From NCBI GenBank assembly GCA_964608675.1, contig CAZSOZ010000001.1:221272-285271 (forward strand): 64,000 nt of DNA, read 5' to 3'. The notes beneath the pieces are model-generated. The model was not told the DNA's origin and did not search any database. It worked only from the letters and a program-made list of their open reading frames with translations. Shown in pieces: positions 30,065 through 58,900 of the stretch (within the stretch, counting starts at the first letter, position 1; each line of letters starts with the position of its first letter). This DNA is from an uncultured archaeon (GTDB taxonomy: Archaea; Iainarchaeota; Iainarchaeia; Iainarchaeales; 1-14-0-10-31-34). The position numbers were made by a program, and so were the translations under genes.

Positions 30065-30628
30065 ATGGCTTTTTCTTTAAGCAGTCTTGAAATAAAAGAA
30101 AACAAAAGTGTTTTGTTTTCAGGCAGGTCTTTTCAGGCAAAAAAATTAATTGAATTAATCTTAAAAGAGCAAAAAAATCAGAAAAATATTCTTGTTGTTT
30201 TGGATCCGGCAAACTATTCTTCTTTAATGAACGATTTTTTTGTTGTTTCAAAAAAAGCTTTTGGAAGAAATTCAGTTGTAGTGGATGATTATTGTCTTTC
30301 TGAAATTTCTTCTGCAGTACATTCAGTTGAAAGAAAATCTGATTCAAAAGGAATTCTTTTGTTTGATTCTCTTTCTTCTTTGCTTTCATTTAATCCTTCA
30401 AACGCAGTTTATTCTTTTCTTTTTTTTGAATCAAGAAAAGCAAAAGAATTAAATTATTCTTTAATTGTGTTTATTGATGAAAGGCTTCATGATACTGCTG
30501 TTTTAATGAACATAAAAAAAATAATGGATTATAATTTCTTTTTTGAATTCAAGGAAAAAAAATTGTTTATAGAAAAAACTGCTTTTCCTTTTAATTCAAT
30601 CAAAAAAAATTATTCTTTTAATGTTTAG
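30065..30628 (+). CDS. KaiC/RecA-like fold protein without a Walker A motif (paralog family).
   Basis: ILLFDSLSSLLSFNPSNAVYSFLFFESRKAKELNYSLIVFIDE is collinear with the Walker B region of 5240-5848 and 30625-31542. Confidence 0.4.
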   Translation: MAFSLSSLEIKENKSVLFSGRSFQAKKLIELILKEQKNQKNILVVLDPANYSSLMNDFFVVSKKAFGRNSVVVDDYCLSEISSAVHSVERKSDSKGILLFDSLSSLLSFNPSNAVYSFLFFESRKAKELNYSLIVFIDERLHDTAVLMNIKKIMDYNFFFEFKEKKLFIEKTAFPFNSIKKNYSFNV

Positions 30629-31542
30629 AGTATTTGAAGGACTCTGTCGCAGAACTGGCTTAATGAATTAACTACTCCTTTATGTTCTTCTGATTTGACC
30701 ATTAAAAGAACTCCTTTCATTTTCCAGTCCCTTAGTTTTCCTATAACTAAATGAATAAATCTTTCAACTGAAGCAATATCGTTGTAAATTAACAAAGTGC
30801 TAATTGAATCAAAAACCAAAAATTTAGGTTTTTCTTTTTGTTTAACATATACTTCATCTATTGCAACACTTAATGCAGTTAAATCTCGAGGAGATTCAAT
30901 GAATTCAACGTTAGGATTAAAAGAAGCTTCTTTTCCTGTTCCTTTGCTTATTGCGTCAACAAAAATTAGTTTTTCTATATCTATTTTTTCTCTTTTAAGT
31001 GTTTCTTTCATGAAGTCAAAAGACCTATTCAAAGTTATGTATAATCCTTTTCCTTGTGTGTGGTTTATTAACAGTCTGATTAATTCGTAATTTATTTTTG
31101 AATAATTTGTTGGTTCCACTAAAAGCAGTGCAGTGAATTGTTCTTTTGGCAGTTCTTCTAAATATCTTAAAATTGTTAAGTCTATTCCTCTTCTCGGGCT
31201 TATTAATTCCTGCAGTGCTTCTTCTGGACGCATTTCTTTTTTTAAATCAGTTTTCATTTCAATGTTTTTTTTTCTTTTGTCTTTTTTTGTTACATAGGTT
31301 CTTATCTGTTTTTCAGGTTTTGTCAGAAGTTTTTCCAGTTCTTTAATTGAATCACCGTCTTTTCCGTTTTTTTTTGCTTCTTTGATTATTTCTTTTTTTC
31401 TTTCTTTTCCCAGGCTCTTTATTTGTTCTGTTAATTTCTGAAATCCTTCTTTTTTTTTTGCCTTCTTTTTTTTATTTTCTTTTTTCTTTTTTCCTTTTTT
31501 CTTGCTTTTCTTTTTTTTCTTTTTCATTTCAGATGTCCTCAA
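30625..31542 (-). CDS. KaiC/RecA-like protein without Walker A, carrying a poly-Lys N-terminal extension.
   Basis: N-terminus MKKKKKKSKKKGKKKKENKKKKAKKK, and a C-terminal FLVFDSISTLLIYNDIASVERFIHLVIGKLRDWKMKGVLLMV (Walker-B-like). It overlaps the downstream KaiC-like ATPase gene by 14 nt. Confidence 0.45.
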   Translation of the reverse strand: MRTSEMKKKKKKSKKKGKKKKENKKKKAKKKEGFQKLTEQIKSLGKERKKEIIKEAKKNGKDGDSIKELEKLLTKPEKQIRTYVTKKDKRKKNIEMKTDLKKEMRPEEALQELISPRRGIDLTILRYLEELPKEQFTALLLVEPTNYSKINYELIRLLINHTQGKGLYITLNRSFDFMKETLKREKIDIEKLIFVDAISKGTGKEASFNPNVEFIESPRDLTALSVAIDEVYVKQKEKPKFLVFDSISTLLIYNDIASVERFIHLVIGKLRDWKMKGVLLMVKSEEHKGVVNSLSQFCDRVLQIL

Positions 31543-32227
31543 ACAATTCCTGTTTTGATAAAACCTTTAATCCTGTCGGCCCGATTGTAACGGGATGAAG
31601 TTTTTCTGATATTTTTGTTCCTCTCATTTTTAGTATTCCTAAACTTCTTACAAACCTGTTTTCTATTTTTGTGTGATACAATAAAATTACTCCGTCTGCA
31701 ACATATTCTTCTAATCCAAACAAGCTTCTTGTTTTATCTAAATTTATTTCGTTTGTTATTACTGTTGTGCAGTCAATTTGTTTTAGCATTTTTCCAAGAC
31801 TCATTATTCTTTTTCTTGCATCCAGTTCTCTGTCAAAGTAAAGCCTGAAAATTACTCCTGGATCAATTACCAGTCTTTTTGCATTAATGGTTTGAATTGA
31901 ATCTTCAATCAAATTTTTGAGTTTGTCAAAATCATATAATTCCACTACTTCTATTATCAGCATTTTTTTCTGAATTAATTCTTCTAATTGGTATCCGAAT
32001 TCTTTTCCATTTCTTATTATTTCGTCGTATGTTTCTTCTAATGAAATGTATATTGCTGGTTCATTGAATTCTATTGCTCCTTTATATAAGTATTCCAGAC
32101 AAAAGCAGGTTTTTCCTGAACCTGGGTCTCCTGCTAATACAACAAGGTTTCCTCTTGGAATTCCTCCATCCATTAATTCATCTAAGCCTGGAACCCCTGT
32201 TTGCGTTCTGTCAGCTAATCTAGGCAT
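31529..32227 (-). CDS. KaiC-like RecA-superfamily ATPase, resembling FlaH/ArlH.
   Basis: GVPGLDELMDGGIPRGNLVVLAGDPGSGKTCFCLEY (Walker A) and RLVIDPG (Walker B); 232 aa, the single-domain size of FlaH. Confidence 0.65.
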   Translation of the reverse strand: MPRLADRTQTGVPGLDELMDGGIPRGNLVVLAGDPGSGKTCFCLEYLYKGAIEFNEPAIYISLEETYDEIIRNGKEFGYQLEELIQKKMLIIEVVELYDFDKLKNLIEDSIQTINAKRLVIDPGVIFRLYFDRELDARKRIMSLGKMLKQIDCTTVITNEINLDKTRSLFGLEEYVADGVILLYHTKIENRFVRSLGILKMRGTKISEKLHPVTIGPTGLKVLSKQELFEDI

Positions 32228-32391: not shown

Positions 32392-32835
32392 ATGTTTAAG
32401 AATAACAAAGGACAATCCGCACTTGAATATTTGATGACATATGGATGGGCTTTGGTTGTAATTGTAATTGTAATTGCAGCCTTGTTTGCTTTCGGTGTCT
32501 TCAATACTCCAAAGAACTGTACACAAACCGGCGGCCAGATGTTGATAAAAAACTATGATTTCAATAGCGGTTTAATACAATTGCAAATTACAAACGGAAC
32601 ACCTAATACAGTAGAAATCACTGGTTTTGATTCTACAACAGGCATTGATAGTTGGTCTGGAGGAGATCCTTGGGTTACACACACCAGTTCTGACTTAGCA
32701 AAAAATGACACTAACACATTCTTTTTAGTGCCGTCATCCGCTTTGTCTGGAAGCATTACTGAAGAAATCACAATGACTTATACATCAGGCGGATTAACTA
32801 AAACAGAAAAAACAACTTGTAGTGGACCAGTTTAA
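32392..32835 (+). CDS. Major type IV pilin / Flp-like pilin with a class III signal peptide.
   Basis: MFKNNKGQSALEYLMTYGWALVVIVIVIAALFA has a short basic N-region, G|QSALEY (Glu at +5 after the Gly, EY as in Flp/archaeal pilins) and a hydrophobic helix. The mature part is Thr/Ser/Gly-rich with N-x-T/S sequons; 147 aa. Confidence 0.7.
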   Translation: MFKNNKGQSALEYLMTYGWALVVIVIVIAALFAFGVFNTPKNCTQTGGQMLIKNYDFNSGLIQLQITNGTPNTVEITGFDSTTGIDSWSGGDPWVTHTSSDLAKNDTNTFFLVPSSALSGSITEEITMTYTSGGLTKTEKTTCSGPV

Positions 32836-33182: not shown

Positions 33183-34172
33183 TTATATTAATGACTTGAA
33201 TGTGTTTTCTAAAAACAGTGAAACAATAAAATAAATTGCATATGATGCAATAAGCATTACTGGAATGTATTTTATTCCTCCTTTTTCGCTTCTTGAATTA
33301 ATTATTCCTATTGTAAGAGACCCAAAAACAGAGATTACTGCTAAAGTCACTAAAGAAAAAACAAAAATGAATTCAGGCTGTATTGCCATTCCTCCTGCAC
33401 CTATTCCTAATCCTCCCTGCGAGGAAGCTAATGCAACTGATTCTTCTGATATTGTTCCAATGCTTCCCATTTGCTTTGACATTATTTTCACGATGAATGA
33501 ACTGATTCCAAACATTAATGGCGCTCCAATCATTGAAGCAAAGAAAATAAGTATTACATACATTGAAACATTTCCTTTTACTTCTTCTTGTAATGCGTTT
33601 TGTTCCCTTAAATCGTCTGATAATTGAAGAAGCAGGTTTGCCATTTCTCCTCCGGATTTCATTCCTTCTGTTATTAGCCAGATTGTTTTTTGAAATGTTT
33701 TTGATTTTATGCTGTTTGTCATTTCTTTTAATGCTGTTTCAGTTCTTTCTCCTGCCATCATTTTTTTGCTTGCTTTTTTGAATTCTATTTCTAATGGGCC
33801 AAATTCAGGTCTTGCAGAAATAAGCAAAGCTTTTTCTGTAGTTATTCCTGATTTCATGTTTGATGCAATTAATTGCAGGGCATCAGGCAGAATTTTTTCT
33901 ACGAATTTTCCTTTGGATTCGCCTGCCTGATTTAATAAATAGTAAATGCCCCCTGCAATCAATGCAAATCCTGCTGTAAATCCAATGAAAAAATTCAGCT
34001 GAAAAAAATAAGTTAATGCAAATCCTGATGCTATTGCTGAAGCAAAACTAAATACTGCCAGAAATCCTGTAAAATTTTTTGTTTCAATATCTATTCCTGA
34101 ATACATTAATTCTTTTGTAAATGTATCTAATACTGTTCTTGGAATCAGTTTTCCTATTTTTTCGTACATCAT
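33183..34172 (-). CDS. Type II secretion system F-domain (T2SSF) membrane protein, TadC/FlaJ-like.
   Basis: Multi-TM protein with a T2SSF-like cytoplasmic region (ASNMKSGITTEKALLISA...); 329 aa. Confidence 0.65.
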   Translation of the reverse strand: MMYEKIGKLIPRTVLDTFTKELMYSGIDIETKNFTGFLAVFSFASAIASGFALTYFFQLNFFIGFTAGFALIAGGIYYLLNQAGESKGKFVEKILPDALQLIASNMKSGITTEKALLISARPEFGPLEIEFKKASKKMMAGERTETALKEMTNSIKSKTFQKTIWLITEGMKSGGEMANLLLQLSDDLREQNALQEEVKGNVSMYVILIFFASMIGAPLMFGISSFIVKIMSKQMGSIGTISEESVALASSQGGLGIGAGGMAIQPEFIFVFSLVTLAVISVFGSLTIGIINSRSEKGGIKYIPVMLIASYAIYFIVSLFLENTFKSLI

Positions 34173-34179: not shown

Positions 34180-35076
34180 TCATCCCATTAAATTTGGTGT
34201 TTTTGATTTTAATATTCCTAAATACATGAATTCTCCTACTGCAATAAAAATCAACAAAATCCAGAATAACATTTCTCCTAACTGCATTTGAGGAAACGAA
34301 CTTAACACAATAAGGAATGTGACTCCTAATGAAGGAATTATTACTCCTAACATCATGTACATTAATGAAAGAATTTTCATTGAATTTCCGTATTTTGTGA
34401 TTTGGAGTTTTTCTTCTCTTATCATTGTTGAAACCAGTTCTTCCATTACTGAGCTTACATCTGATCCTGCTTTCATTCCGTTTATTATCTGCCAAATGCT
34501 TCTCCTGAAAAAAAGTGAAGGATTGTATCTTGCAATTTTTTCTAATGCAATTTCTTCTATTGTTCCTGTTTCAATTTCTTTTACGGCTTTTCTGAATTCA
34601 TTTGATAATGCGCCGTAATCTCCTTCTGCTATTATATTCAGGGAATCAAACAGGGAAACCCCTGATTTTATTTCCACTGCCATTGTTCTTAAAGCAAAAA
34701 TTAAATTCCTTTCAACTTCTCTTATTTTTTGTTTTCCTTTCATTTTTGGATATAATGCAGTTTGCATCATCACAAATCCGCTGAAAAGAGCGCCTCCTAT
34801 TAAGGCTGCAAGCAAATAACTGTCCGGAAGCAATCGTATTCCAATAAGCAAAGCCAAAATGAATCCTATTACAAAATAGATTGCCCCCATTGTTAGAATT
34901 ATTGCTGAATATTCTTTTTCGTTGTATTCCAGTTCTGCCTGATATAATTCAAGTTTAAGGTAAGGAAAGAATTTTGAAATCTTTAATCCTATTCCATAAA
35001 ATTTTTTTGAAATAGTTTTAATTAGAGAAAGGGGAAGAAAATTAAATGGAATCATTTTGTTTTTTTTTGTTTTCAT
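34180..35076 (-). CDS. T2SSF-domain membrane protein, TadB/FlaJ-like.
   Basis: TM segments and the T2SSF region ALRTMAVEIKSGVSLFDSLNIIAEGDYGALSNEF...; 298 aa. Confidence 0.65.
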   Translation of the reverse strand: MKTKKNKMIPFNFLPLSLIKTISKKFYGIGLKISKFFPYLKLELYQAELEYNEKEYSAIILTMGAIYFVIGFILALLIGIRLLPDSYLLAALIGGALFSGFVMMQTALYPKMKGKQKIREVERNLIFALRTMAVEIKSGVSLFDSLNIIAEGDYGALSNEFRKAVKEIETGTIEEIALEKIARYNPSLFFRRSIWQIINGMKAGSDVSSVMEELVSTMIREEKLQITKYGNSMKILSLMYMMLGVIIPSLGVTFLIVLSSFPQMQLGEMLFWILLIFIAVGEFMYLGILKSKTPNLMG

Positions 35077-35088: not shown

Positions 35089-36591
35089 TCAAAAATCAGG
35101 CTTCCTGTTTTTTTCTGCTAATTCAATTATTTCATCTTTGTCTCTGTAATATTTTGCCATTATTTTTCCTACTTTTTCAATTTTTTTTATTTTGTTTTTT
35201 ACCAGCCAGTCAAGAATTATTTTTTTTGTTTTTAGTTCTTTTGACATTTCCTGTCTGCTGAATCCTGTATGCAGACCTAATTCATCAAATAACCTTATGC
35301 TTTCTGAATGTTTTTCTATGGTGTCTGTTGCTCCTTTCCATCGGTATAAAACATTTGCTTTAACTTCTTCTTGGCTTCCTCTTCTTTCAGTAATGTATTC
35401 TGCTATCTGCAGAACTCTTCTTACATTTAGTCTTCTGTTTCTGAACATAACTACATTCAAGTGTACTGAATCCAGCATTGTTTTTGGAACTTCAATTGGA
35501 GGATTTGTAAGCCTTCTTACAGTTTCTGCTGCAGTATTTGCATGAAAAGTAGTGTAAGCTGAATGCCCGGTGTGCATTGCTTCAAATAATACTTCTGCTT
35601 CTCTCTGCCTTCTTATTTCCCCTACAATCAGTCTGTCCGGACGCATTCTCAAAGAATTTACCAGCAAATTAAGCATGGTTACTTCTCCTTTTCCTTCAAC
35701 GTTGGGTTCTCTTGTTGTTAAGGGAACCCAGTGAAGGTAAGGAGGCAAACTTAATTCTCTTGTGTCTTCAATACTTAATATTCTTTGATTGGGTTGAATA
35801 AAAGGCAGGCACACATTTAAAGAAGTTGTTTTTCCTGAACCTGTTCCTCCTGAAAAAATAATGTTTAGTTCGTATTCCATTGCAAGCCAGATTAAAGACA
35901 TTATTTCTGTGTTGACTGTTTTGTTTTCCACAAAATCTGTTACAGTATAAGGTTGTCTTCTGAATCTTCTGATTGTAATAGTGTTTCCTTTGCTTGAAAT
36001 AGGAAACAAGGTTGCATTTGCTCTGTCTCCTGTAATTAAGTGTGCGTCCAGCAAAGGATTTAATACAGTAATCTGCTTTCCTATTCTTCTGGCAATAATG
36101 CTTGCATAATTTTGGATTTCGCTTTCAGGACTCACATAAACGTTTGTTTTCAGCCATCCGAATCCTTTATGGTAAACCCACACAGGGTCAACAGAACTGT
36201 TTATAACTATTTCTTCAATGTTTCCGTCATTTAGCAGGAATTCAATTTTTCCTAATCCAAGCATTTCTTCTAAAAGAAGCCCTATCAATAAATCCCTTGA
36301 ACCTTCCCCTATGTCTGGGAGTTCTCTGTCAAGTATTTTTTCTGCTTTTCCCTGAAATTTTTTTTTCAGCGAATCAACAAAATCAGGGTCCATCATTCTT
36401 TCTGCTTGTATGGTTGAATCAGTTATAATGCTTCTTTTTAGGTTTTCTAATACTGCTTCTGTTCCTTCTCCGAATTCAGGGAAATTAAGAAAATAAATTC
36501 TTACAAATTCATTTTCTTTTTCAAGTATGTTTACTTCAATTTCTGTTTCAATTGATTTCACTTTATATGTTTTTAGTACTTTTTCTTTCAT
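35089..36591 (-). CDS. Type IV pilus / secretion ATPase of the FlaI/TadA(CpaF)/VirB11 family.
   Basis: IIFSGGTGSGKTTSLN Walker A, RLIVGEIR Walker-B/Asp box, and His box EAMHTGHSAYTTFHANTA. The N-terminal domain is about 230 aa; total 500 aa. Confidence 0.85.
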   Translation of the reverse strand: MKEKVLKTYKVKSIETEIEVNILEKENEFVRIYFLNFPEFGEGTEAVLENLKRSIITDSTIQAERMMDPDFVDSLKKKFQGKAEKILDRELPDIGEGSRDLLIGLLLEEMLGLGKIEFLLNDGNIEEIVINSSVDPVWVYHKGFGWLKTNVYVSPESEIQNYASIIARRIGKQITVLNPLLDAHLITGDRANATLFPISSKGNTITIRRFRRQPYTVTDFVENKTVNTEIMSLIWLAMEYELNIIFSGGTGSGKTTSLNVCLPFIQPNQRILSIEDTRELSLPPYLHWVPLTTREPNVEGKGEVTMLNLLVNSLRMRPDRLIVGEIRRQREAEVLFEAMHTGHSAYTTFHANTAAETVRRLTNPPIEVPKTMLDSVHLNVVMFRNRRLNVRRVLQIAEYITERRGSQEEVKANVLYRWKGATDTIEKHSESIRLFDELGLHTGFSRQEMSKELKTKKIILDWLVKNKIKKIEKVGKIMAKYYRDKDEIIELAEKNRKPDF

Positions 36592-38358
<1,767 letters not shown>

Positions 38359-38402: not shown

Positions 38403-39503
38403 TCATGTCGCTTTAGTTATTGCACTTGGATTAGATTCGTTTCCATACCAGTCCACTGCAGTTAAATAAAAGTAATTTGTCTGCCATAATTCCAGCTCTT
38501 TTCCTGTTTCTTCTTTTGAGGAAACTGCGTTCAGAACATATGCAGTGAATGCCTGGCTGTCTTCTTTGCTTCTGTAAATCCTGTATTCTTTTAAATCTTC
38601 TTCTGGGTTTGCATTCCATGCAATAAGTATTTTGCCGTCTGTTTTTCTTGCAGTTATTCCTGTTGGAGCAGAGGGAGCAATCGAATCATTTTTTACTTTT
38701 ATTCCTGTGATTTCAAAAACTTTTCCTGTGTTTTTTATTTCAATTATATATTCTCCTTCTTTTTCAGGAGCAGTTAATTCTGCTGAAAAAATTTTTGAAC
38801 AGGAACTGCATAAATTTTTTGTTATTTTTTGGGTTTTTTGTGTTGAATTATTTTTAATCCATTCAACAATAAAATTGAATTCTTTTGCAGGAATTTTTTC
38901 TGCATCTACAATTAAACTAATTTTTTGGTTTGGTTTAACAAATTTTTTTTCTATTGAAATTCTTTTTATTTCAAATGTTTCTTGATGAATGCATTTTCCG
39001 TTAATGCATTCTCCTTCGTTGCATCCGCATTTTTCGCAGTTTTTTTCCAGTTTTCCGTTATTGCAGTAATTTGGCTTTTGTTTTGAACATTCTCCAAACA
39101 AAGTTCCGTCAATGCATTTTTTTTCTGTTTCAATTACAGTTATTTTCTTTTTTTTGTTTATTTGGTTTCCGTTATCCAGAATCATTTTCATTTCAATCAT
39201 GTAAACTCCTGTTTTCTGAAAGATTTCTGTGAATTCAACTGAGCATTCTGTTTTACTGCATTCTTTTTCTTTTGTTTTTTCTGGAGACAAGTAAACTATT
39301 TTTTTTATGAGGAAAGAACTTTCTGCATTTACTTCAAATAATGCTTTTTCTCCTTTCTCAAAGCTTTCTTTTGATTTAATTTCAATTTTTGATTCAGTGG
39401 TTATTCCTTTAACATTAATTATTCCTGCAGAACTCAAAGTAAAAAAAACCCCTAAAAAAACTGTTATTGAAAGAATTATTGAAAAAATATTTTTTATTTC
39501 CAT
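38403..39503 (-). CDS. Secreted or membrane-anchored protein with a Cys-rich module and a C-terminal fibronectin-III-like domain.
   Basis: N-terminal hydrophobic signal; CIDGTLFGECSKQKPNYCNNGKLEKNCEKCGCNEGECINGKCIHQ; the C-terminal PSAPTGITARKTDGKILIAWNANPEEDLKEYRIYRS...YFYLTAVDWYGNESNPS is FN3-like. Confidence 0.45.
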   Translation of the reverse strand: MEIKNIFSIILSITVFLGVFFTLSSAGIINVKGITTESKIEIKSKESFEKGEKALFEVNAESSFLIKKIVYLSPEKTKEKECSKTECSVEFTEIFQKTGVYMIEMKMILDNGNQINKKKKITVIETEKKCIDGTLFGECSKQKPNYCNNGKLEKNCEKCGCNEGECINGKCIHQETFEIKRISIEKKFVKPNQKISLIVDAEKIPAKEFNFIVEWIKNNSTQKTQKITKNLCSSCSKIFSAELTAPEKEGEYIIEIKNTGKVFEITGIKVKNDSIAPSAPTGITARKTDGKILIAWNANPEEDLKEYRIYRSKEDSQAFTAYVLNAVSSKEETGKELELWQTNYFYLTAVDWYGNESNPSAITKAT

Positions 39504-39510: not shown

Positions 39511-40473
39511 TCACTTGTTTGTTTTTTCTATATTAAATCTGCTGTCAGTCAAAGTTATGTTTAAGTCATTTAATTTTATTTCTTCTATTTCTGAAGTAAA
39601 CAAAAACTGGACTTTTGCTTGAATTTGTGTTCCTGAATGCCTTATTTCAACATTGTTTTCATTGAAAAAAATTTTTATTTCTTCTGAATTGCATCCTGCA
39701 CCAACACACAAAAAAGTTATTTCGTGGTCTGATGTTGAATCAAAATGCTTGCTTGTTTTTCTGGTATCTGAATTTAAATCGCATTCTGAACAGTTTTCAT
39801 CCAGCAAATTTACTTCAATAAAAGGACTTAACTGCATGGGATTATAGCTTTCCTGATAACAGTTTTGATCTCCTCCGTAATCACATGACAAAAAATTGTA
39901 GTCTTCTGAAGACGAAACAGAAATATTTATGTCAATCTTTCTGATTAAATCTATATCAAAATTTTCTTCGCATTCATTTGAGCCATGAAAGTGCATTGAA
40001 TTGTAGTCTGTTAAAGTGTATTTTTGGCATTGTGGTTTTATAATTAAATTAATGTTTTCATCTATTCCCCCCCATAAACTGTTTTTTGGGGCTTCTACTT
40101 CAACTTCTATTAAATCATAAATTGCTGAATCACTGCTTTCAGCAAAAATTTCATATGCATTAATAAAATCAAAAAAGCTTTTGGTTTGAACTTCTTTTAA
40201 GGGAAGTTTTTGAGTAAAACTGACAGTTCTTTCTTCAATTGAATAAGTAAACGGAACAAGCCTTTCAAAATAAGTTTTTGTTGTTCCTGTCCTGTAAAAA
40301 TCTTTTATAAAACCTATGTTTGAATACTTGTATTTTACTTGGTCAACGGCGTTTGAAGCAAATGACTTTTTTTCTGCTTCCAGATACTGGCTGTTTATTT
40401 TGAATGCAAAACCTAACAGCATTAAAGACAAAACCAATCCCATTAAAACAAAAAATAATCCTTTGTTTTTCAT
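39511..40473 (-). CDS. Secreted protein with a possible class-III-like (pilin-like) N-terminus.
   Basis: MKNKG|LFFVLMGLVLSLMLLGFAF: short basic N-region, Gly, then a 20-aa hydrophobic stretch. It overlaps the upstream gene by 4 nt. Confidence 0.35.
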   Translation of the reverse strand: MKNKGLFFVLMGLVLSLMLLGFAFKINSQYLEAEKKSFASNAVDQVKYKYSNIGFIKDFYRTGTTKTYFERLVPFTYSIEERTVSFTQKLPLKEVQTKSFFDFINAYEIFAESSDSAIYDLIEVEVEAPKNSLWGGIDENINLIIKPQCQKYTLTDYNSMHFHGSNECEENFDIDLIRKIDINISVSSSEDYNFLSCDYGGDQNCYQESYNPMQLSPFIEVNLLDENCSECDLNSDTRKTSKHFDSTSDHEITFLCVGAGCNSEEIKIFFNENNVEIRHSGTQIQAKVQFLFTSEIEEIKLNDLNITLTDSRFNIEKTNK

Positions 40474-43196
40474 TTAATCCAGCCCCTGTATTCTATTACA
40501 TAAAATTCTGTTTTTGGAGAAGCATAACAATGAATGGAATCAAGATTATTTGTAGGGCATTCACTTAAATTTCCGTTTGGATTGACTTCCACGCAGATTA
40601 TTCCTTGTGTAGCAATATATTCATCTAAATAAAGTATTGTTGAAAAACTGCAGTCTGAGTCATTTCCTCCGCATAATTCAGGCACAAGATAATGATTTCC
40701 AAGAAGAATTCTTCCTGCTCCTGTACTGCAAACTGAATCATTTCCTAAATAAAAATTCAAATCAGTTTCTCCTGTGTTCAAATCTCCAATATTTGATACA
40801 TTTACATCAATAAAAATGTCTGTTTCGCTTAATATTTCTCCACTGATTATTTCAACTGCAATATCTCTTTTTTTGAATGGAATTGGAACAGTGAATGCAT
40901 TCCAGTCAATTATTTGTGTTGTTCCGTTTTCATCCACATAAGACAAATAACTTCCTTGTCCGGGAAAAACAATTGAATCTGTTTCGCATCCTAAATTTGA
41001 ATCACATGCAATATTAATTGTATAACTTCCGTGCCAAGGATTTTCAGGAGAAATGTTTCCTGCATCAAAAACAAGGTTTCCGTCAATAATTGTAGCGTTT
41101 CCGTCATCAATTATCGTAATATTTTGAGGCATTATAATTGTTACGTTGGAGTCTGTTGCTTGAGCCTGAATTTCATCTGCAATCAAATTATAGATGTCCA
41201 TTAATGCATTTGCGTCTTCTGCAAAGTAATAATTGGCATCAGTTGCATTAGCAATATTCTGTAATTCTGTTTCATCCACGTCTCCTCCAAATCCAATAGT
41301 ATAAATTTTTATTCCTAAATCTGCTGCGTCTTCTGCTGCCTGCAACGAATCCCCTGAATTTGACTGTCCGTCTGACAGCAAGACTTGGAATTTTAATGCA
41401 TATTCCGCGGTTCTTTCTGAAATTAATTCTTCTGTTCCTTCTCTTATTCCTTGTTCGATGTTTGTTCCTCCTCCGGGCAACAGGGAATTTACATCTGTCT
41501 GTAATGCAAGTTTGTTTGAATCATCTAATTTTTTTAATTGTGAATCCAGAAAAGAAGAAGTATGAAAGCTGGCTACTCCTATTTGGTCTGATGCTTTCCA
41601 TTCATTGAAATCAATAAATGTAGCAGCAGAAGCCTGAACTGCATCCATTTTTGTTCCAGAACTTAAATCCAAAGTAATTAAACCCATTGAATCAGCCGCA
41701 ATAAATGCATACCCGTTTTCGACTCTTACATCATTATATTCGTAAGGAGTCCTGTAAATTCTGTTCAATAAAGGATTATCTACATCGCTTACATCAATGG
41801 AATACAAGCCTCCTGATTCATCTGCAATATATGCAGTGTTTCCGACTACATCAACTCCTCTTGCGTTGTCTGCAGTATTATAGTTCCCTCTTGCACTAAT
41901 ATTGCTTGGATCACTTACATCAAAAACGTCCAGTCCTCTTGAACCATTTGCAACAAACACATAGTTTCCTGAAACTTTTACTCTGTAAGCTTGTCCGCCT
42001 AAATCCATTGAATCCTCAAAAGTTAAATTGTTTGGGTCACTGGCATTTAATACAACAAATCCGTCATTGTAATTTCCTATATATAAATAAGTTCCATCTG
42101 AATCAATTCCAAACGCAGTTCCAGAAGTATCATAATTGTCCTGATGATTTATATTTCCTGGATCGCTTGCATCATATGAATCAACTCCTCTTGAACCGTT
42201 TGCAGCATACAATTGATTCCCTATTTTTACAACCCCATAAGAATAGTTTCCTGATAAATCAACTCTGTCTGTTTCAAACATGTCTGTAGGATCGCTTATA
42301 TCTATTGATCTTATTCCTGAAGTGTAATCTGCCACATATGCATAATTTCCTTCAATAAAAACATCAAAAGCAATATATGTGTCTTGCCTGTCTCCATATA
42401 ATATGTCTAATGGATTGCTTACATTAAAACTGTATATTCCATAATAATAATCTGCAAGGAAAGCATAATTTCCTGAAACATCAACTGCCTGAGAATTATA
42501 TGCGTCGTATTCTCCTCCCCAGCTCATTGAACCGCTTTTGTCTATAACAAGCATTATGTCTACAGGCCTTCGGTATCCAGGGGGAAAAGCAGCAGTCAAA
42601 TTAACTATAATATTTTGATCGCATTCAAGTTCTGTGTCAGGAACCGTATTTACATCGAAAACAAAATTAAGGTCTTCTCCCATGAAATCAAAAAATATTT
42701 TTCCTGTGTCAAAAACAAATTTTTGTTCTGATTGCATTAAACCCAGAATATTTGTATCACATTCTCCTGGAGGCTGTTTTTTTACAATTAATTTTTTTCC
42801 GTAGAAAACAGTTTTATTTTCAGGGACTTCTGATCCAAAAGAGAATTCATTAAAATCTGTTCCAAAACAATCATTAAAAGTCTGGTTGTTTCTGCATTTA
42901 ATTGAATTCAAATCAAATTGTTTTACGCTTACATTTAAGTCAAGGTAATCAGGAAAAAATCCTTCAAGTTTATTGTAAATATTTTCAGCTGAAGCAGATG
43001 TATTTGCATCCATTTGACTTATAAGAAACCCTGTTTGTTCCATTGCATTGAATGCGTCGTTTAATTCCTGTCCAATGTTTCTTTCAGCTTTTTCTTCAGA
43101 AAAAAATAATCCTGCAGACAAAATTATTCCTGAAACTAAAACTAATGCAAGAATAGCATCAAAACTAAATGTAAACCCTTTATTCCCATAATTCAT
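40470..43196 (-). CDS. Giant pilin-like adhesin: class III signal peptide, then a vWA domain interrupted by an LVIVD-repeat beta-propeller, then a C-terminal Cys-containing domain.
   Basis: Likely start MNYGNKG|FTFSFDAILALVLVSGIILSAGLFF; the ORF track extends to 43241. MIDAS DIMLVIDKSGSMSW is followed by about 300 aa of LVIVD-like repeats (YAFLADYYYGIYSFNVSNPLD, YAYVADYTSGIRSIDISDPTD, YVFVANGSRGLDVFDVSDPSN, TAYIADESGGLYSIDVSDVDNP, YAFIAADSMGLITLDLSSG). The vWA then resumes (GGGTNIEQGI, LLSDGQSN, IYTIGFGGD). Confidence 0.7.
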   Translation of the reverse strand: MNYGNKGFTFSFDAILALVLVSGIILSAGLFFSEEKAERNIGQELNDAFNAMEQTGFLISQMDANTSASAENIYNKLEGFFPDYLDLNVSVKQFDLNSIKCRNNQTFNDCFGTDFNEFSFGSEVPENKTVFYGKKLIVKKQPPGECDTNILGLMQSEQKFVFDTGKIFFDFMGEDLNFVFDVNTVPDTELECDQNIIVNLTAAFPPGYRRPVDIMLVIDKSGSMSWGGEYDAYNSQAVDVSGNYAFLADYYYGIYSFNVSNPLDILYGDRQDTYIAFDVFIEGNYAYVADYTSGIRSIDISDPTDMFETDRVDLSGNYSYGVVKIGNQLYAANGSRGVDSYDASDPGNINHQDNYDTSGTAFGIDSDGTYLYIGNYNDGFVVLNASDPNNLTFEDSMDLGGQAYRVKVSGNYVFVANGSRGLDVFDVSDPSNISARGNYNTADNARGVDVVGNTAYIADESGGLYSIDVSDVDNPLLNRIYRTPYEYNDVRVENGYAFIAADSMGLITLDLSSGTKMDAVQASAATFIDFNEWKASDQIGVASFHTSSFLDSQLKKLDDSNKLALQTDVNSLLPGGGTNIEQGIREGTEELISERTAEYALKFQVLLSDGQSNSGDSLQAAEDAADLGIKIYTIGFGGDVDETELQNIANATDANYYFAEDANALMDIYNLIADEIQAQATDSNVTIIMPQNITIIDDGNATIIDGNLVFDAGNISPENPWHGSYTINIACDSNLGCETDSIVFPGQGSYLSYVDENGTTQIIDWNAFTVPIPFKKRDIAVEIISGEILSETDIFIDVNVSNIGDLNTGETDLNFYLGNDSVCSTGAGRILLGNHYLVPELCGGNDSDCSFSTILYLDEYIATQGIICVEVNPNGNLSECPTNNLDSIHCYASPKTEFYVIEYRGWIK

Positions 43197-43734
43197 AAAC
43201 TTGTAATTCAATTTGAGCTTCACTTCCTCTATAATTAACAATTCTTTTGGTTGAAATCAAATATTCTGTCTGGCTTGCAGGACTTAATCCTGCACTAATT
43301 ATTATTACTCCTTGAGTTAAAACAAAATAATAATCATATCCTTCCAATCCAAGGAGTTCCCTGCTTTTATTGTAGTCAAGATTTGAAAAAGCTGTCAGTT
43401 TGTCTTCGCTTATCTGATTTCTTTCCATTAATCCAATTCTTTCAATATGGCTTTCACTTAAATCCTCCCAGTTTTCAGGATAGCCTTTTGTTTCAGTTAA
43501 TTCTTTTAAAACAAAAAAAGAAGAATGATTGATTTCATTTAATTCCATGTTTCTAGTAAAATCTTTTGTGTTTTTGTTTACTGCTGAAAGAACAGAAGTA
43601 AAAATTAAAACAAAAATAAAAAACCCCATAACTAAATCAATCATGCTTGACTGTCCTCGTTTGCTTTTATGCAGGAATAAGAAAGTGCTTTTAGTCAAGC
43701 ACAAGGATTTCTTAGATTTTTTCAATTTCAACAA
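43180..43734 (-). CDS. Pilin-like protein (minor pilin / pseudopilin) with a class III signal peptide.
   Basis: KRGQSSMIDLVMGFFIFVLIFTSVLSA: G|QSS followed by a hydrophobic helix; 184 aa. Confidence 0.5.
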   Translation of the reverse strand: MLKLKKSKKSLCLTKSTFLFLHKSKRGQSSMIDLVMGFFIFVLIFTSVLSAVNKNTKDFTRNMELNEINHSSFFVLKELTETKGYPENWEDLSESHIERIGLMERNQISEDKLTAFSNLDYNKSRELLGLEGYDYYFVLTQGVIIISAGLSPASQTEYLISTKRIVNYRGSEAQIELQVYELWE

Positions 43735-44068
43735 CTCCGTTTAAATCTTTTATTCTTACATTTCCTTTTGTAATAAAAATTTCTTGGGCTATTCCATAAT
43801 AACTGCAGGAAATTCCTTCAACATCAATCCACCCTTCACCTACATTAAAGTCTTTTTCTGCATAAAATTCAACGGTTGTTTTTTTTCCTGAAGCATAAAC
43901 TGAACTGATTATATCTGAGATTTTTCTGCATTCAGCTTTTGATTCAAGATAATCTGCCATTATTTCAATTTCATTATTTTTTTCAAAACTATATGCTGCA
44001 ATTACTGCAAAAGATAAAAGCAGTACAACTGCTCCAATAATTATTTCCATTGAAACCTGGCCTTTCAT
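43712..44068 (-). CDS. Pilin-like protein with a class III signal peptide.
   Basis: MKGQVSMEIIIGAVVLLLSFAVIAA has the QxSxE motif immediately after Gly; 118 aa. Confidence 0.6.
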   Translation of the reverse strand: MKGQVSMEIIIGAVVLLLSFAVIAAYSFEKNNEIEIMADYLESKAECRKISDIISSVYASGKKTTVEFYAEKDFNVGEGWIDVEGISCSYYGIAQEIFITKGNVRIKDLNGVVEIEKI

Positions 44069-44078: not shown

Positions 44079-44507
44079 TCAGCTAATTTCAGTGAAAGTG
44101 ACATTTGAATCAGTGGATTCAACTGCAATAAAATGAAATCCTTCTTCTGTTGAAAAACTTGTTGGTTCAAGTTCTGCTTTGCTTATATCATAAACTTCAT
44201 AAGTGCTTACTAAAGAAGTCATTTCAATTATTACTTGGCTGCCAATTGTATAAAAATTTGTTACTCCTGAAGGAAGTTCTGCTTCAACTACAATAATGCT
44301 TCCGTTTCTTGTGCTTACTTCATCTGCAGCATTAACTAATTCCCTTAAAGAATAATAAGTTGTATTAAATCTCTCGTTTTCATTCACAGTAATTATTGCA
44401 AAAACAAACATTATTCCTACAATAAGCATAACAATTGCAGTAAGACTTACGTATTCAACAGAAATCTGCCCTTTATTCAAAAAACCACTTTCCTTATTTA
44501 GAAACAA
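44079..44507 (-). CDS. Pilin-like protein with a class III signal peptide; first gene of the operon, with an apparent TTG start.
   Basis: LNKGQISVEYVSLTAIVMLIVGIMFVFA has QxSxEY; 142 aa. Confidence 0.6.
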   Translation of the reverse strand: MFLNKESGFLNKGQISVEYVSLTAIVMLIVGIMFVFAIITVNENERFNTTYYSLRELVNAADEVSTRNGSIIVVEAELPSGVTNFYTIGSQVIIEMTSLVSTYEVYDISKAELEPTSFSTEEGFHFIAVESTDSNVTFTEIS

Positions 44508-44605: not shown

Positions 44606-45544
44606 TTGTTTTTCGTTATATTTTTAGTTTGCTCTGCAAAAATATATTTAATGTTTTCAGTTAAAAGCAAGGCATCAGAAGAACAGGAATTATGGAAAAA
44701 AATAGAGGACTTAGAAAATTCCCTTAAAAAAGCTGAATCTGCCAATAAACCTGAAATCGAAATTCAGTTAGCAAAACTTAAATTTCAGTTATCTGAACTT
44801 CAGAAGCCTTCAAAAAAAAGAAATCTTGATTTTGAAGTTGAACTGCAAAAAAAGCAGTCTCAATACAATGATTTATATGAAAAATACTCTAAATTAAGGC
44901 AGGCAGTAGGTTCAGTAAGTTCTGTTTCTGAAATAGAAGAAAAGCAGAAAGAAAAAGAACTAAAAGACAAACTGCATAAATTTCTTCTCAAAAAATATGC
45001 TGACATAATAAATGAAACCGAAAAAAAAACTATTGGAGAAATAAAAGGTCTTATTGATCCAGATGATTTAAGCATTCAGTCTCTTTTGGCAGAATTAATT
45101 ACAGAAAATTATTCTTTCAGCAAAAATTATCTTTCAATGGCAAAAGAAGCCTATGATTTTGTTTTAAAAGAAATTTCTTTTGTTGAATCAGATATAAAAA
45201 TCAATTTTTGGCTTACTCCTACTGAAATAATAAAAAACAAATTTGCAGACGATGAAGATTTAGCTGTGTTTTTATGCACTTTGCTTTATGCTTTAGGAGA
45301 CGAAAACGCGTTTGTGATTGTAGCTGAAATGGAAAACCTTTCAAGCCATGCTTTTGTTATTACTGAACACAAAAACAAATTTTATTTGTTTGACTCTTCA
45401 CAGAAAAAATCTTTTAATGAATTTTCAGGAAAAAAAGAAGAAATATTAGAAAATTATTCTTTCAGGGACTCAAAAATCAAGAGATTTTTATACAGATTTA
45501 ATGCATTAGAATACGAGCAGTTTCCTGAAGAAAGAACAGAATGA
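44606..45544 (+). CDS. Coiled-coil protein with a C-terminal transglutaminase-like (Cys-His-Asp) core.
   Basis: DLAVFLCTLLYALGDENAFVIVAEMENLSSHAFVITEHKNKFYLFDS has Cys, His and Asp in the order and spacing of transglutaminase-like/papain-like cores. The N-terminal 120 aa is coiled-coil. Confidence 0.35.
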   Translation: MFFVIFLVCSAKIYLMFSVKSKASEEQELWKKIEDLENSLKKAESANKPEIEIQLAKLKFQLSELQKPSKKRNLDFEVELQKKQSQYNDLYEKYSKLRQAVGSVSSVSEIEEKQKEKELKDKLHKFLLKKYADIINETEKKTIGEIKGLIDPDDLSIQSLLAELITENYSFSKNYLSMAKEAYDFVLKEISFVESDIKINFWLTPTEIIKNKFADDEDLAVFLCTLLYALGDENAFVIVAEMENLSSHAFVITEHKNKFYLFDSSQKKSFNEFSGKKEEILENYSFRDSKIKRFLYRFNALEYEQFPEERTE

Positions 45545-48588: not shown

Positions 48589-51273
48589 TCATTCAATTAA
48601 TACTGCCGGCTTTAATGGAAAAGCATTTCCTGCTTTTTTCTCTGAACTTTTTTCTGCTTCAATTAATTCAATTTCTGCGTTGAATTTTTCTTTTAATTTT
48701 TTTAGGTTTTCTTTTAAGGCTTTTATTTCATTTATTTCAATTAATTCCTGTGTTTCATTCAGTTTTTTTACTGCAGTCTGAACAAATCCTTTTGCTTCTT
48801 TTGCATGCTGTTTTCCTTCTTTTGTCTGCATTGCTTTTTTCATTCCAAACCCAAATTCAATTCTGTTGTTTTCCTGCTTTAATTTTTCTTCAAACAATTT
48901 TTTCATTAGAATCCATTTCCATTCAGGTGCAGTAAAAATTTTTATTCTGCTTATTTTTTGTTTTCCTGCAAGCTCTTTAATTTGTTCAACATCAGATTCC
49001 AGATTTTCAATGAATTCCTGTTGTTTTTCTATTTGAACGTAAATTTTTTTTTCTTCTGCTTTCGGCCATTCCTGTAAGCTGGCAAAACCTTTTCCTTTAA
49101 GTTTTTCCCATAATTCTTCACTTAAATGAGGTGCAAAAGGATTCAGCATTAAAACAAGTTTTTCAATTCCTTCTCTGAAAACAGGGCTTTCTTTTTTTTC
49201 AAATTTTCCCAGTTCACTGCTTAACTGGCTTAATTCTGAAACAGCTTTGTTTAACTGCAGGCTTTCAGTGTATTCAGTGCATTTTTTTATTGTTCTTTGA
49301 ATTTTTGAAAGCAGTAATTTTTCTTTTGAATCAAGTTTTGTTTTTATTTTTTCTTTTTTTGGGTTTTCTTTGATGATTGAATAAATTCTGTTTAAAAACT
49401 TGAATGAATTTTCTGTTCCTTTTGAATTCCATTCCATTTCGCTTTCCGGATTGCTTGCAGACAAAATAAACACTCTTGCAGTATCTGCTCCAAATCTTTG
49501 AATTATTTCTCCTGGGTCAACTATATTTCCCAGGCTTTTGCTCATTGCTTTTCCGTCTTTTAAAACCATTCCTTGTGTAAGGAGTTTTTCAAAAGGTTCA
49601 TCAATTTTTATTAAACCCAAATCTCTTATTGCTTTAGTGAAAAACCTTGCATACATTAAATGAAGTATTGCGTGTTCTATTCCTCCAATGTACTGGTTTA
49701 CAGGCATCCAGTATTCTGCTTCTTTTTTGTCAAACATTTTGTCTGTTTTAGGAGAGCAGTACCTTAAAAAATACCAGCTTGAATCAAAAAAAGTGTCCAT
49801 AGTGTCTGTTTCTCTTCTGGCTTTTCCTTTGCATTTTGGGCATTCTGTTTCAACAAATTCTTTAACTGAATCCAGAGGATTTCCTTTTCCTGTAAATTCT
49901 GCGTTTTCAGGAAGCTTAATCGGAAGATTTTTTTCTTGAACCAACTGAATCCCGCATTTTTTACAGTAAACAACAGGAATTGGTGTTCCCCAAAACCTCT
50001 GCCTTGAAATCAGCCAGTCCCTCAACTTATAATTTACGGTTTTTTTTCCTATTTTTTTTTCTTCTAAAAAATCACTTATTTTTTCTTTTGCTTTTTCTGA
50101 ATTCATTCCATTAAACTCTTTTGAGTTAACCATTATTCCTTCTTCAGTGAAAGCTTCTTTCATTTCTTCTGCTTTTAGTTTTTTTTCTTTGGGCTGAATT
50201 ACAACTTTAATTGGCAGACCATATTTTTTTGCAAACAAAAAATCTCTTTGGTCGTGCGCTGGAACAGCCATTACTGCTCCTGTACCGTATTCCATTACAG
50301 CGTAATCAGCAACAAAAATTTTGCATTCTTCTCCATTAACAGGATTAATGAAATGTTTTCCGATAAACATTCCTTTTTTTTCCAGTCCTTCTGATGTTCT
50401 TTCAATTATTGTCTGTTTTTTTACTTCCTTTAAGAATTCATTTAATTTTTCTTTGTATTTTGTTCCTTTAACCCATTCTTTTATTTTTTCGTGTTCCGGC
50501 GCAAACACTAAATAAGTTATTCCAAAAATTGTGTCTGGCCGTGTAGTAAAAGTTGAAATTGTTTCTCCTGTTTCTTTTACTTTAAAATAAATTTCAGTTC
50601 CCTTGCTTTTTCCAATCCAGTTTTTTTGCATTACTTTAACTCTTTCAGGCCAATCCTTTAATTTTTTTAAGTCTTCTAATAGTTCATCTGCATAATCAGT
50701 TATTTTCAGAAACCATTGCTCTAATTCTTTTTCTCCTGCAATACTTTTGCATCTCCAGCATTTTCCGTTTTCAACCTGCTCGTTTGCTAAAACTGTTCTG
50801 CATTCTTTGCACCAGTTTACTTTTGATTTTTTTTTGTAAGCCAGACCTTTTTTGTAAAATTCTCTGAACAGCCATTGATTCCATTTATAGTATTCTGGAT
50901 CGGCTGTAGCAAAGCTTCTGTTCCAGTCATAACTGAATCCAAGCATTTTTTGTTGTTCTTTCATTTCTTGAATTCTTTGGTAAGTCCATTTTTTTGGGTT
51001 TACTTTGCTTTTGATTGCCGCGTTTTCTGCAGGCAAACCTAAGGCATCATATCCCATTGGATACAATACATTAAATCCTTTCATTCTTTTGAATCTTGCA
51101 AGCGCGTCTCCGATTGAATAATTCCTTACATGCCCCATATGCAGTTTTCCTGAAGGATAAGGGAACATTTCCAGTACATAATATTTTTTTTTCTTTGAAT
51201 CAGTTTTTACTTCAAAAACTTTTTTTTCTTTCCATTTTTTCTGCCATTTTTCTTCAATTTTTTTATGGTTCAT
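48589..51273 (-). CDS. leuS: Leucyl-tRNA synthetase, bacterial type.
   Basis: [48 protein letters not shown] is near-identical in pattern to E. coli LeuRS; KMSKS (KMSKSLGN) is present; 894 aa with a Lys/Glu-rich C-terminal tail. Confidence 0.9.
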
Positions 51274-55995: not shown

Positions 55996-58900
55996 ATGAA
56001 ATTAAATTTCCTTTTAATTTTAATTCTTTTGTTTTTGTTTTCTGGCTGTTCAGAGGAAAAACTTGAATACAAAAACGCGTGCCTTTCTCTGACTTCTTAT
56101 TCTTTTCAGGAAATTCCTGAATGCAGTTCTCAGGAAGACTGCTTTAAAGAAGTTGAAAAACACTTGTTTGATTTTAAGCAAACTTTTTCTTTTGAATCTT
56201 CTGATAAACTTCATTCTTATAAAAATAATCTTGCTTCTTCTTGGCTTTATTTTAATAAATCCCTTAAGCTGGTAAAGGAACTAAACCGTTTGTGTTATTC
56301 TGATGATTTTTCTTTTCTGCCGGAAAAAACCAATGAACTGGTTTTTTCTTTGGAAAAAGCATTTGAATTTTCAGATAAAGCAAGCCTTGATTCTTTTTCT
56401 TTTCTTTTAACAGAAAAAAATTTTCTGAACAAACAAAACATTGAATTAATTCCTGAAGAGCTTTTGTTTGATGATTTTATTTTATTTAATCACAATCTGA
56501 ATGAATTGTCTACTCCTGAAATATACAAGTCTTCTGGTTCTTATGTTTCAAAATATTTTAATGCTTCAGCAGAATTCAATGATTTTTCCTCTAAATTTGG
56601 TTTTTATTCTCTTTATTTGAATGAATTCACTTCCTCTGACTTAATTAATTTTTATCAAAAAGACGCTCTTGATTCAGTTAAATCAAATAAATTTTATGTT
56701 CCACTGATGAAAAAAACTTTTTCTTCGGTTTCTTCCTTTATTTTCGGCTTAAATGACTTAAAAAGAACTGTTTCTGTTCTTAATTCAATTCCTTCAAACA
56801 AACTGTTTTTTTTGTATGGAAATTTTGTTTCTCCAAAAAATTCTGTTGCATCAGAATTTTCTCTGCTCGTTAAAAAAGTTTCAGAGCACAAGTTGTCTTT
56901 AAATGAATCAAATAATTCTTTGGTTTTGGAAATTGAATCTGATTTTAATGAAATTTCTTTTAAGCTTGACGAGCTCTCTGTTTCTTCTGTAAGCAGATTT
57001 GATTCAAATATAACTTCTTTTCTTTTTGAGGAACTGAATGCTTCTTTTATTTCAGAAAACAAAAACGAAATTTTTTCTGCTGAAACTTTTGTTTTTGAAT
57101 CAAGAAAAAAGCTTTCACTGCTTAAATCAAAGTTCAATGAATTAAAAAGAAAGGATTCTTTTAATGAAATTTCTTTGGGAAAAAAATCTTCCCTGCTTAA
57201 GCAAATTAAAGCTGAAACTCTTTCCCTGAAAGAAGACATTGGTTTTTTTGCAGGAGCCTTTATTGATGAATTAATTGTTTTATGCAGTACAAAAACAGAA
57301 TTAATTTCTTCAGAATTAAACCAAAAAGATTTTTCTTCTTTTTCTTGGGAAATAACTTCTCTTGCCTCCAGAACTGCAGTAAAAATTGATTTATTTGAAG
57401 ATGCTTCAAAAGAACAAAAAATTATTTACTGTAAGGACACCATTCTCCTCAAAAAACAGCTTGATTCTGCTTTAGAAAACCAGGAAAAATTTCTTTTAAG
57501 TTCTTCTGAGTCCCTGAACGAATGCATTTCTTCCCTTGAAAAAATTTTTTATTCAAAAAATCTTTCAGTTTTTGTTGATTCTTTTTATTCCCTTAAATCC
57601 ATGCAAAAAAACAGGCTTCCTTTTTCTTATCTTTTGGATTCCTGTTCAGACCTCAAAAAAAGAATAACTGTTTACCTTTATTCTTATGATGAAGAAATAA
57701 TTCAGGCAAACGATTTTTACATCAAATCAGAAAAAATTTTATCAAATCTTTCCTTTTTATCAAAAATTTATCCCGAATTCTTTAATTCAGTCAAAACAAC
57801 CAATTTTATTTCTGATTTTGATGAAATTTCACTTGATTTTTCTTTAAAAAAACTTAAACCTGAATTTTTTCCTTTTTCTTCTGAAAAACTTTCTTTAATC
57901 AAAAAATTTAATCAAAAAATAAATTCTTTTTTTTCTTCTTCTTTTGGACAATTCCTTTCATTTAATTATTCAATAAAATCTTTTCCTTTAGAGCAGGCGG
58001 TTCTAGGAAAAACTTTTTTGGTTAAACAAAAAATCTTTTTTCCCAATCCTTTGAATGAACCAATTAACCTTGAATTCTCTTTTCTTTCTCCTTTTCTTTC
58101 TTCTGAAAATAAATTAATTCATTCATGCATTAAAGAGATAACTAAAAGCAAGTCTAATTCAAGAATTTTAGTTTCTTGTTTTCCTGAGGAAGGGCTTTTG
58201 TTTGAATCAGACAAAAATTTACTGCTTTCTTTTTTTGATTCTTTTCCTGAATTAATTGAAGCAAACCAGAATTCTGTTTTGTTTTCTAAATCCCTGAAAA
58301 TTGATTCTTTTTCACAAATTTCTTCTTTGAAGGCAGTTGTTCCTTTGGAATTTAATTCTGATAATGCTTTTGCTGTATTTAATTCACAGAAAATTCCTGT
58401 TGAAATAAAAGAAAAAAACGCGGTTTTTTATTTGGAGGAACTTAATTCAGAGCCTTTGATTGAATTATTTTTTTCTGTTTCCAAACCTGTTTCTTTTGAA
58501 TTTTCCGAGAAATCAAGAAAAAAACTTGATGAAAACACTTTTTTGGTTTTTTTTGATTTACAGTTAAAAAACAATCTGGCTTTTGATTTTGATTCAATTA
58601 AAATTTTTCTTCCTTTAAATGACTCTGATTCAATTCTTGAAGCAAAATTAACAGATTTTTCTTCTGAAATAAAAGTTTATTCTTTGGGAAAAAAATTTTT
58701 TTTTAAAACCTCTTTAAATAAACTTGAGTCAAAAAAATTTTTTCTTGAAATAAAAATAAAAGACTTTGATGAATACAAAAAATCATTGAAGAATTCTCTT
58801 TTATCTGAAATTTCATTGATTGAAGACCCTGTTTTCAGAAAAAATTTTCAGACAAAAATTAATTCTGCTGATTCCTTTGAAGAATTAATTGAATTAAATG

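Follow-up and report, generated by a model that had tools for sequence, protein, structure and literature searches.

The tip adhesins SpaC, RrgA, GBS104, PitA and Mfa5 of the sortase and type V pili have vWA domains whose inserts are short 'arms', not an autonomous domain of 285 residues such as the one described below, and their assembly depends on sortases or on strand exchange, not on a type IV machinery. PilB of S. sanguinis, a modular pilin with a vWA domain, is a proven adhesin (PMC8179133); the accompanying survey of modular pilins relied on the bacterial N-methylation signature and makes no mention of archaea (PMC8179133). Here we describe a pilin-like protein encoded in a 64,000-nucleotide (nt) stretch of a small uncultured DPANN archaeon of the Iainarchaeota, or Diapherotrites (contig CAZSOZ010000001.1 of assembly GCA_964608675.1, positions 221,272 to 285,271; the whole stretch is called the window), in which an LVIVD beta-propeller sits inside a vWA domain. 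Judged by analogy, PilB is the closest functional counterpart of this vWA/LVIVD protein, although PilB is bacterial, measures about 50 kDa, has a contiguous vWA domain and lacks both a propeller and C-terminal beta-sandwiches.

The gene occupies 40470..43241 on the minus strand, where the initial annotation had already placed an open reading frame (ORF) of 923 residues; this ORF opens at a TTG at 43241. Its parts follow in the order class-III-like signal peptide, Cys-containing N-terminal domain, vWA strand beta1, LVIVD propeller, remainder of the vWA domain and C-terminal beta-sandwiches. This overall architecture is well supported, and we infer the function: with moderate confidence, we favour a very large modular pilin-like subunit of an archaeal type IV pilus, that is, an adhesin that depends on metal, is presented on the pilus and has an interchangeable module for specificity. 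Since relatives have other binding modules in place of the propeller, the protein is probably a swappable attachment head. Database names for the family, where there are any, are 'VWA domain-containing protein', 'hypothetical protein' and, in one case, 'Mg-chelatase subunit ChlD'. Two residue numberings are in use, that of the 923-residue ORF, which is followed here, and that of the 908-residue database protein P0001, which is indicated where it applies.

The split vWA domain and the LVIVD propeller

That the vWA domain is split by an insertion had been proposed in the initial annotation, and the profile searches bear it out. The Pfam VWA match (PF00092; E value 3e-19, 70.3 bits against a cut-off of 23.8) covers residues 532-684, equivalent to profile positions 17-172 of 174; because it starts at position 17, exactly strand beta1 and the DxSxS loop of the metal ion-dependent adhesion site (MIDAS) are missing from the match. 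This strand and its MIDAS loop (VDIMLVIDKSGSMSW) lie far upstream at residues 227-241 (42519..42563, minus strand), and the vWA remainder from helix alpha1 to alpha6, with the MIDAS residues Thr593 (in GGGT) and Asp624 (in LLSDG), lies at residues 528-697 (41151..41660, minus strand). A profile of 21 family members matched the PDB vWA chain 4rck_A (E value 6e-18) in two pieces, 229-242 (DimlvlDrSGSmsW) onto 20-33 and 535-690 onto 45-216, indicating that about 290 residues replace a link of about 12 residues between the MIDAS loop and helix alpha1; the vWA part also matches PDB entry 3ibs (E value 1e-7). The Pfam and PDB matches agree on a break point after the DxSxS loop, and within the vWA domain the propeller occupies the beta1-alpha1 loop, which bears the metal-binding serines.

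All motifs quoted in the initial annotation are found where it put them, namely the KG site at the N-terminus, the MIDAS motif DIMLVIDKSGSMSW (residues 228-241), GGGTNI (590-595), LLSDGQSN (621-628) and IGFGGD (649-654). The full MIDAS set consists of D234-K-S236-G-S238, T593 and D624 (D219, S221, S223, T578 and D609 in the 908-residue numbering). These residues are invariant or nearly so in the 21 aligned members on both sides of the insert, further supporting the split, and D-x-S-G-S-M-x-W is invariant in the propeller class (DxSGSMSW in the window protein). By its conserved residues the vWA domain is predicted to bind metal at the MIDAS, and AlphaFold2 (AF2) models are consistent with a closed vWA fold, of which beta1 would be part. 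As judged from the sequences, the split architecture far exceeds what chance would produce, and dozens of genomes share it.

The insert itself (residues 243-527; 41661..42515, minus strand) is a seven-bladed LVIVD beta-propeller with seven repeats of about 41-43 residues each, and the fold of the LVIVD region is that of a beta-propeller. The repeats recognised in the initial annotation are genuine (PF08309; E value 7.8e-30, 102.4 bits against a cut-off of 20.2), although their number is seven instead of five, GNQLYAANGSRGVDSYDASDP and GTYLYIGNYNDGFVVLNASDP having been missed; the Pfam search proposed there as a check placed both LVIVD and VWA above their cut-offs. Among close relatives, identity is lowest in the propeller (54-66%), higher in the post-insert vWA and C-terminal region (73-83%) and highest in beta1 and the MIDAS loop (91-100%). 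The C-terminal beta-sandwich domains (residues 698-923; 40470..41150, minus strand) match CARDB weakly and contain conserved Cys as well as an ECPxNN...C...W.W motif. At the other end, an N-terminal alpha/beta domain (residues 54-218; 42588..43082, minus strand) is family-specific, contains four invariant Cys and is a candidate pilin or stalk module.

Variable inserts across the family

The family was defined by a search with a construct from which the propeller had been deleted, together with phmmer of the N-terminal 229 residues; in the latter, run against 1.84 billion representative proteins, only 125 proteins carry the N-terminal domain. Insert size was taken as the distance from DxSGS to helix alpha1 in 115 full-length representatives. 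Four of these, 648-671 residues long, have no insert at all; about 24 have inserts of about 112-147 residues, a beta domain of about 120 residues with no LVIVD; four have inserts of about 230-240 residues; and 36 form the propeller class, which includes the window protein, with about 283-299 residues. Inserts of about 430-450 residues are propellers with a DUF4082-like domain nested inside, and larger inserts reach about 1560 residues, the giant ones containing one to three Laminin_G_3/ConA-like lectin domains (E values down to 2e-68). Across the whole family the beta1-alpha1 insertion point is a hotspot whose content is of at least five kinds, examples being P0242, P0258, P0252 and P0213, the P0138/P0124 class, the P0033 class, P0255, P0285, P0293 and P0274, and the loci L004 and L056-L058; P0138 carries the beta domain and P0285 lectin domains. 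Such variable loop contents (none, beta domain, propeller, propeller with DUF4082, lectins) are as expected of an exchangeable ligand-recognition head.

Orthologues that lack the insertion, for which the initial annotation had suggested looking, do exist, and their vWA domain is contiguous. They are true positional orthologues of the vWA/LVIVD protein; in the operon of P0258, for example, a divergent transglutaminase-like gene is accompanied by genes for proteins of 140, 118 and 161 residues, the 648-residue protein, proteins of 314 and 632 residues, a T2SSE protein and two T2SSF proteins. The MIDAS of the insertion-less proteins is degenerate (DxSRP, with the Thr gone); the full MIDAS is kept in 36 of 36 propeller-class representatives and lost in four of four insertion-less ones. 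In a neighbour-joining tree of the scaffold, which is rough, has long branches and is without support values, the insert classes are interleaved and the insertion-less group is nested among propeller forms; this hints at repeated insert swaps and at secondary loss of the insert.

One further protein, P0031 (1351 residues), has DUF4082-like domains inside the propeller and another at a second vWA site, between the GGT and SDG motifs, which amounts to nesting three levels deep.

The pilus locus and the proposed role of the protein

The N-terminus of the vWA/LVIVD protein has the hallmarks of a pilin. The class-III-like signal peptide and hydrophobic N-terminal helix (43107..43196, minus strand), MNYGNKG|FTFSFDAILALVLVSGIILSAGLFF, comprise a short polar leader ending in [KR]-[GA] and about 20 hydrophobic residues after it; the site reads KG|FTFSFD, with KGFTFSF at residues 21-27, and the motif [KR]G|F.F[ST].[DE] followed by a hydrophobic helix is kept family-wide. 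The AF2 model has a helix at 12-28, and that of a paralogue at 16-60. The class III signal peptide of the initial annotation is thus borne out by the conserved motif, by the helix and by five more pilin-like neighbours. Its TTG start is less well placed. Initiation at ATG 43196 gives a protein of 908 residues that is 100% identical to P0001, and GTG 43223, which is preceded by GAGGAA, aligns with the leader 'MK.KLN..F' of the homologues P0002 and P0003; the true start is likely to be one of these two downstream codons. Each of the three codons, TTG 43241, GTG 43223 and ATG 43196, overlaps the end of the upstream gene for a 184-residue protein.

The vWA/LVIVD gene comes fourth in a compact minus-strand operon whose genes overlap or lie at most 44 nt apart. 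It is preceded by genes for three pilin-like proteins, one of 142 residues (44079..44507; KG|QISVEY; Class_IIIsignal E value 0.004, 17.5 bits, below the cut-off of 23.7), whose N-terminus is conserved in related loci, one of 118 residues (43712..44068; KG|QVSMEI) and the 184-residue protein whose gene overlaps it (43180..43734; RG|QSSMIDL). It is followed, with a 4-nt overlap at its stop, by a gene for a pilin-like protein of 320 residues (39511..40473; KG|LFFVLMG), and then by genes for a Cys-rich protein of 366 residues with a Sec-type signal peptide (38403..39503) and a Lys/Glu-rich protein of 588 residues with no family match (36592..38358), both conserved in the operon, the second lying between the pilin-like genes and the ATPase gene. 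The last three genes encode a FlaI/PilB-type type IV pilus assembly ATPase (T2SSE; 35089..36591; PF00437 E value 4e-37; 278 bits on the NCBIfam FlaI model, below its cut-off of 550) and two TadC/FlaJ-like membrane platform proteins (T2SSF; 34180..35076 and 33183..34172; PF00482 E values 2e-17 and 9e-15). The N-terminus of the 320-residue protein, [KR]G|[VIL][LF]F..M, is without the acidic residue at +5/+6 and differs in this from the other five pilin-like proteins; in bacterial systems absence of the acidic residue marks the tip-most subunit GspK, to which the 320-residue protein may be analogous. In the locus L001, the homologue of the 588-residue protein has a faint match to HTH_24 only.

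Between the TadC-like genes and a KaiC-like gene pair, a plus-strand gene (32392..32835) encodes a canonical archaeal pilin of 147 residues that is likely to be the major pilin. Its N-terminal sequence is KG|QSALEYLMTYGWALVVIVIV, with QSALEYLMTYGWA directly after the KG, and is almost invariant across the Iainarchaeota loci. The KaiC-like ATPase pair (30625..32227, minus strand; PF06745, the second protein also matching DUF7504 and DUF7090) adjoins the pilus locus, in line with the association of KaiC-family ATPases with such loci in archaea that Makarova et al. (2016, PMC4858521) noted. Divergent from the operon on its other side is a plus-strand gene for a transglutaminase-like or CEP76-peptidase-like protein (44606..45544; DUF553 E value 2e-5) whose position is the same in some 30 related loci; roles as a maturation protease or in enzymatic cross-linking are possible.

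The operon proteins were compared by tblastn with 55 related loci from about 50 species-level genomes, and the same gene order was found wherever the contig was long enough; ATPase and platform genes are encoded alongside the vWA gene, an arrangement kept in nearly all of the 55 loci that extend far enough. Class-III-like N-termini are kept across the loci in six operon proteins. The link to a pilus is drawn from this operon content, from the synteny over 55 loci and from these six N-termini. Almost all of the loci are from metagenome-assembled genomes (MAGs) labelled Candidatus Iainarchaeum, Diapherotrites or 'archaeon'. The MAGs of L006, L043 and L044 (also L008, L033 and L034) are labelled Bacteroidota, Thaumarchaeota, Chloroflexi or Micrarchaeota; since they carry the same-family gene, these are probably mis-binned or mislabelled Iainarchaeota contigs.

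Elsewhere in the window, the gene for leucyl-tRNA synthetase (48589..51273, minus strand) encodes an editing domain (PF13603, E value 6e-72) that we take to be typical of the bacterial-type enzyme, in an otherwise archaeal genome, and it may have been acquired horizontally. An ORF of 1330 residues (55996..59988, plus strand) has no Pfam match at E values up to 0.01.

A metal-dependent adhesin on the pilus, as suggested in the initial annotation, agrees with the conserved MIDAS and with the operon context, and the fold resembles that of adhesins at pilus tips (SpaC, Mfa5, PilB, PitA, RrgA and GBS104), though the function is still one that we infer. The adhesin reading draws on this fold similarity, on the lectin-type and other beta domains found at the same site, on the faster evolution of the insert, on the coupling between insert and intact MIDAS and on the precedent of PilB. 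We propose that a prepilin peptidase would cut the protein after KG to give a mature N-terminus FTFSFDAILALV..., and that the hydrophobic N-terminal helix would dock it with the other minor pilin-like proteins in a complex that primes pilus assembly and is carried to the tip of a filament built from the 147-residue major pilin. There, the vWA MIDAS with Mg2+, Mn2+ or Ca2+ would bind a ligand on another cell or on a surface through an acidic group of that ligand, and the C-terminal beta-sandwiches and the N-terminal domain would form a stalk. The MIDAS face of a vWA domain is built from the beta1-alpha1, alpha2-alpha3 and beta4-alpha4 loops; an insert in the beta1-alpha1 loop is necessarily on this face, so that a propeller, lectin or other insert most likely contributes to binding or gates it. 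The propeller may supply or shape ligand specificity in the manner of the propeller-betaI interface of the integrin head. A bolder extension, which we hold only tentatively and with more doubt than belief, is that the MIDAS loop is a socket for repeated domain exchange whose emptying leads to decay of the MIDAS, that insert and metal site form a composite site with integrin-like but inverted topology, and that the protein is the main determinant of the partner or surface to which these DPANN archaea attach.

Several points weigh against the adhesin proposal. That the vWA domain closes around the propeller, and where the propeller lies with respect to the MIDAS, is read from topology, from confidence values and from the model of a paralogue, and the predicted template modelling score of the AF2 model is 0.56, low enough to make the arrangement of the domains uncertain. 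The MIDAS might be used for a contact that is internal or structural, and a subunit of about 100 kDa might stay anchored in the membrane instead. No prepilin peptidase (GxGD-type motif) was found among the ORFs of the 64-kb window, a regular-expression search matching unrelated soluble proteins only; the Pfam Class_IIIsignal model (PF04021), which is short and built for Q-type pilins, has no match to the vWA/LVIVD protein at E values up to 0.1; and the N-terminal domain matches no recognised pilin family. The adhesin function is, moreover, read from sequence and models of organisms that are uncultured.

The strongest competitor, although we regard it as unlikely, is a membrane-anchored accessory part of the pilus machinery whose vWA-propeller ectodomain binds the S-layer, the pilus shaft or a part of the machinery. 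A single N-terminal hydrophobic helix on a very large protein, the lack of a prepilin peptidase in the window and the closest vWA sequence relatives, which are membrane-anchored proteins of the BatA/BatB type, would suit such an anchor, as would the hypothesis, cited by Makarova et al. (2016, PMC4858521), that the vWA pseudopilin TadG serves to 'anchor the pilus'. However, [KR]G before a hydrophobic stretch and an acidic residue at +6 characterise pilins processed by a peptidase and are common to the co-encoded small pilins, a variable and lectin-rich insertion site suits an outward ligand binder better than a fixed machinery contact, and the propeller evolves faster than the scaffold. A surface assembly resembling the bindosome instead of a long adhesive pilus, with vWA, propeller and lectin heads that capture substrates (polysaccharides or metal-chelated compounds) for uptake, appears improbable. 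In the Bas bindosome of Sulfolobus, large substrate-binding proteins with class III signal peptides are displayed near the cell surface; class III signals on large non-pilin proteins are thus established for archaea, lectin-type inserts are present in some members of our family, and the ATPase does match the NCBIfam BasE model, albeit at 149 bits, well short of the cut-off of 1000. Against uptake stand the highly conserved canonical major pilin gene of the locus, the lack of ABC transporter genes linked to it, and the higher score of the same ATPase on the FlaI model than on BasE.

An artefactual split (a two-gene fusion, a frameshift, a mis-assembly or chance motifs, with the N-terminal DxSGS lying outside the vWA fold) is so improbable that it hardly enters the balance: nothing speaks positively for it, the window being simply metagenome-type sequence, and the same continuous ORF recurs in about 50 genomes, including two complete chromosomes, which excludes gene fusion or assembly artefact. 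A census of archaeal type IV pilus loci mentions a role for vWA proteins solely as ArnB-like regulators and does not mention DPANN (PMC4858521). An ArnB-type regulator is ruled out here by the signal peptide or membrane helix, the conserved Cys pairs and the surface-type domains, which together indicate that the vWA/LVIVD protein is extracellular.

Comparison with known systems

No description of this vWA/LVIVD family was found in the searchable literature. The family is real, conserved and undescribed; the kind of system to which we assign it, pilus-borne modular adhesins, is already known. The protein is best classed as a vWA-domain and LVIVD-propeller protein with pilin-like sequence hallmarks and gene context, outside the TadG, PilY1 and BatA families. 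TadG proteins resemble it in being large pilin-like vWA proteins encoded in a Tad-like (TadA/TadC-type) pilus operon, but they are bacterial, their vWA domain is contiguous and their own function is unproven; no TadG/TadE-type N-terminal family appeared in the Pfam scan at E values up to 0.1. BatA and BatB (PDB 4rck and 3ibs) are the closest vWA sequence relatives and likewise have an N-terminal membrane helix ahead of the vWA domain, but without an insert, a pilus context or C-terminal sandwiches, and the window protein scores 46.4 bits on the NCBIfam BatA model, against a cut-off of 380. PilY1/PilC proteins are pilus-associated adhesins that pair a vWA domain with a seven-bladed beta-propeller and work with minor pilins. 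Unlike the present protein, PilY1 is itself no pilin, and it has the two domains in tandem, vWA N-terminal and propeller C-terminal, with a propeller of another family; the PilY1/PilC family is absent from the Pfam results for the vWA/LVIVD protein, whose propeller matches LVIVD only and is internal, not C-terminal.

The vWA/LVIVD protein would extend to archaea the concept of the 'modular pilin', established for bacteria. To our knowledge the Iainarchaeota have no cultured member, and for the question of how DPANN archaea recognise partners or surfaces and stay attached to them the vWA/LVIVD locus offers a concrete, conserved candidate attachment device. The architecture should be moderately surprising to a specialist and makes attachment in an uncultured DPANN lineage open to testing; forms with no insert, a beta domain, a propeller or lectin domains constitute a natural variant series for expression and testing. 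The MIDAS loop of this vWA domain appears to tolerate inserts of 0 to about 1560 residues, which may be useful for understanding and engineering vWA adhesins.

The nearest structural parallel to the nested arrangement is the integrin head, where the same two folds cooperate, the MIDAS beside the propeller face forms the ligand site and a loop of one domain contains the other. In integrins, however, the propeller is the host and the vWA domain the insert, and the propeller family is FG-GAP instead of LVIVD; no homology beyond the fold is implied. The vWA/LVIVD protein would be an example of a vWA domain whose metal-binding loop houses a complete seven-bladed propeller, inverting the arrangement of integrin alphaI.

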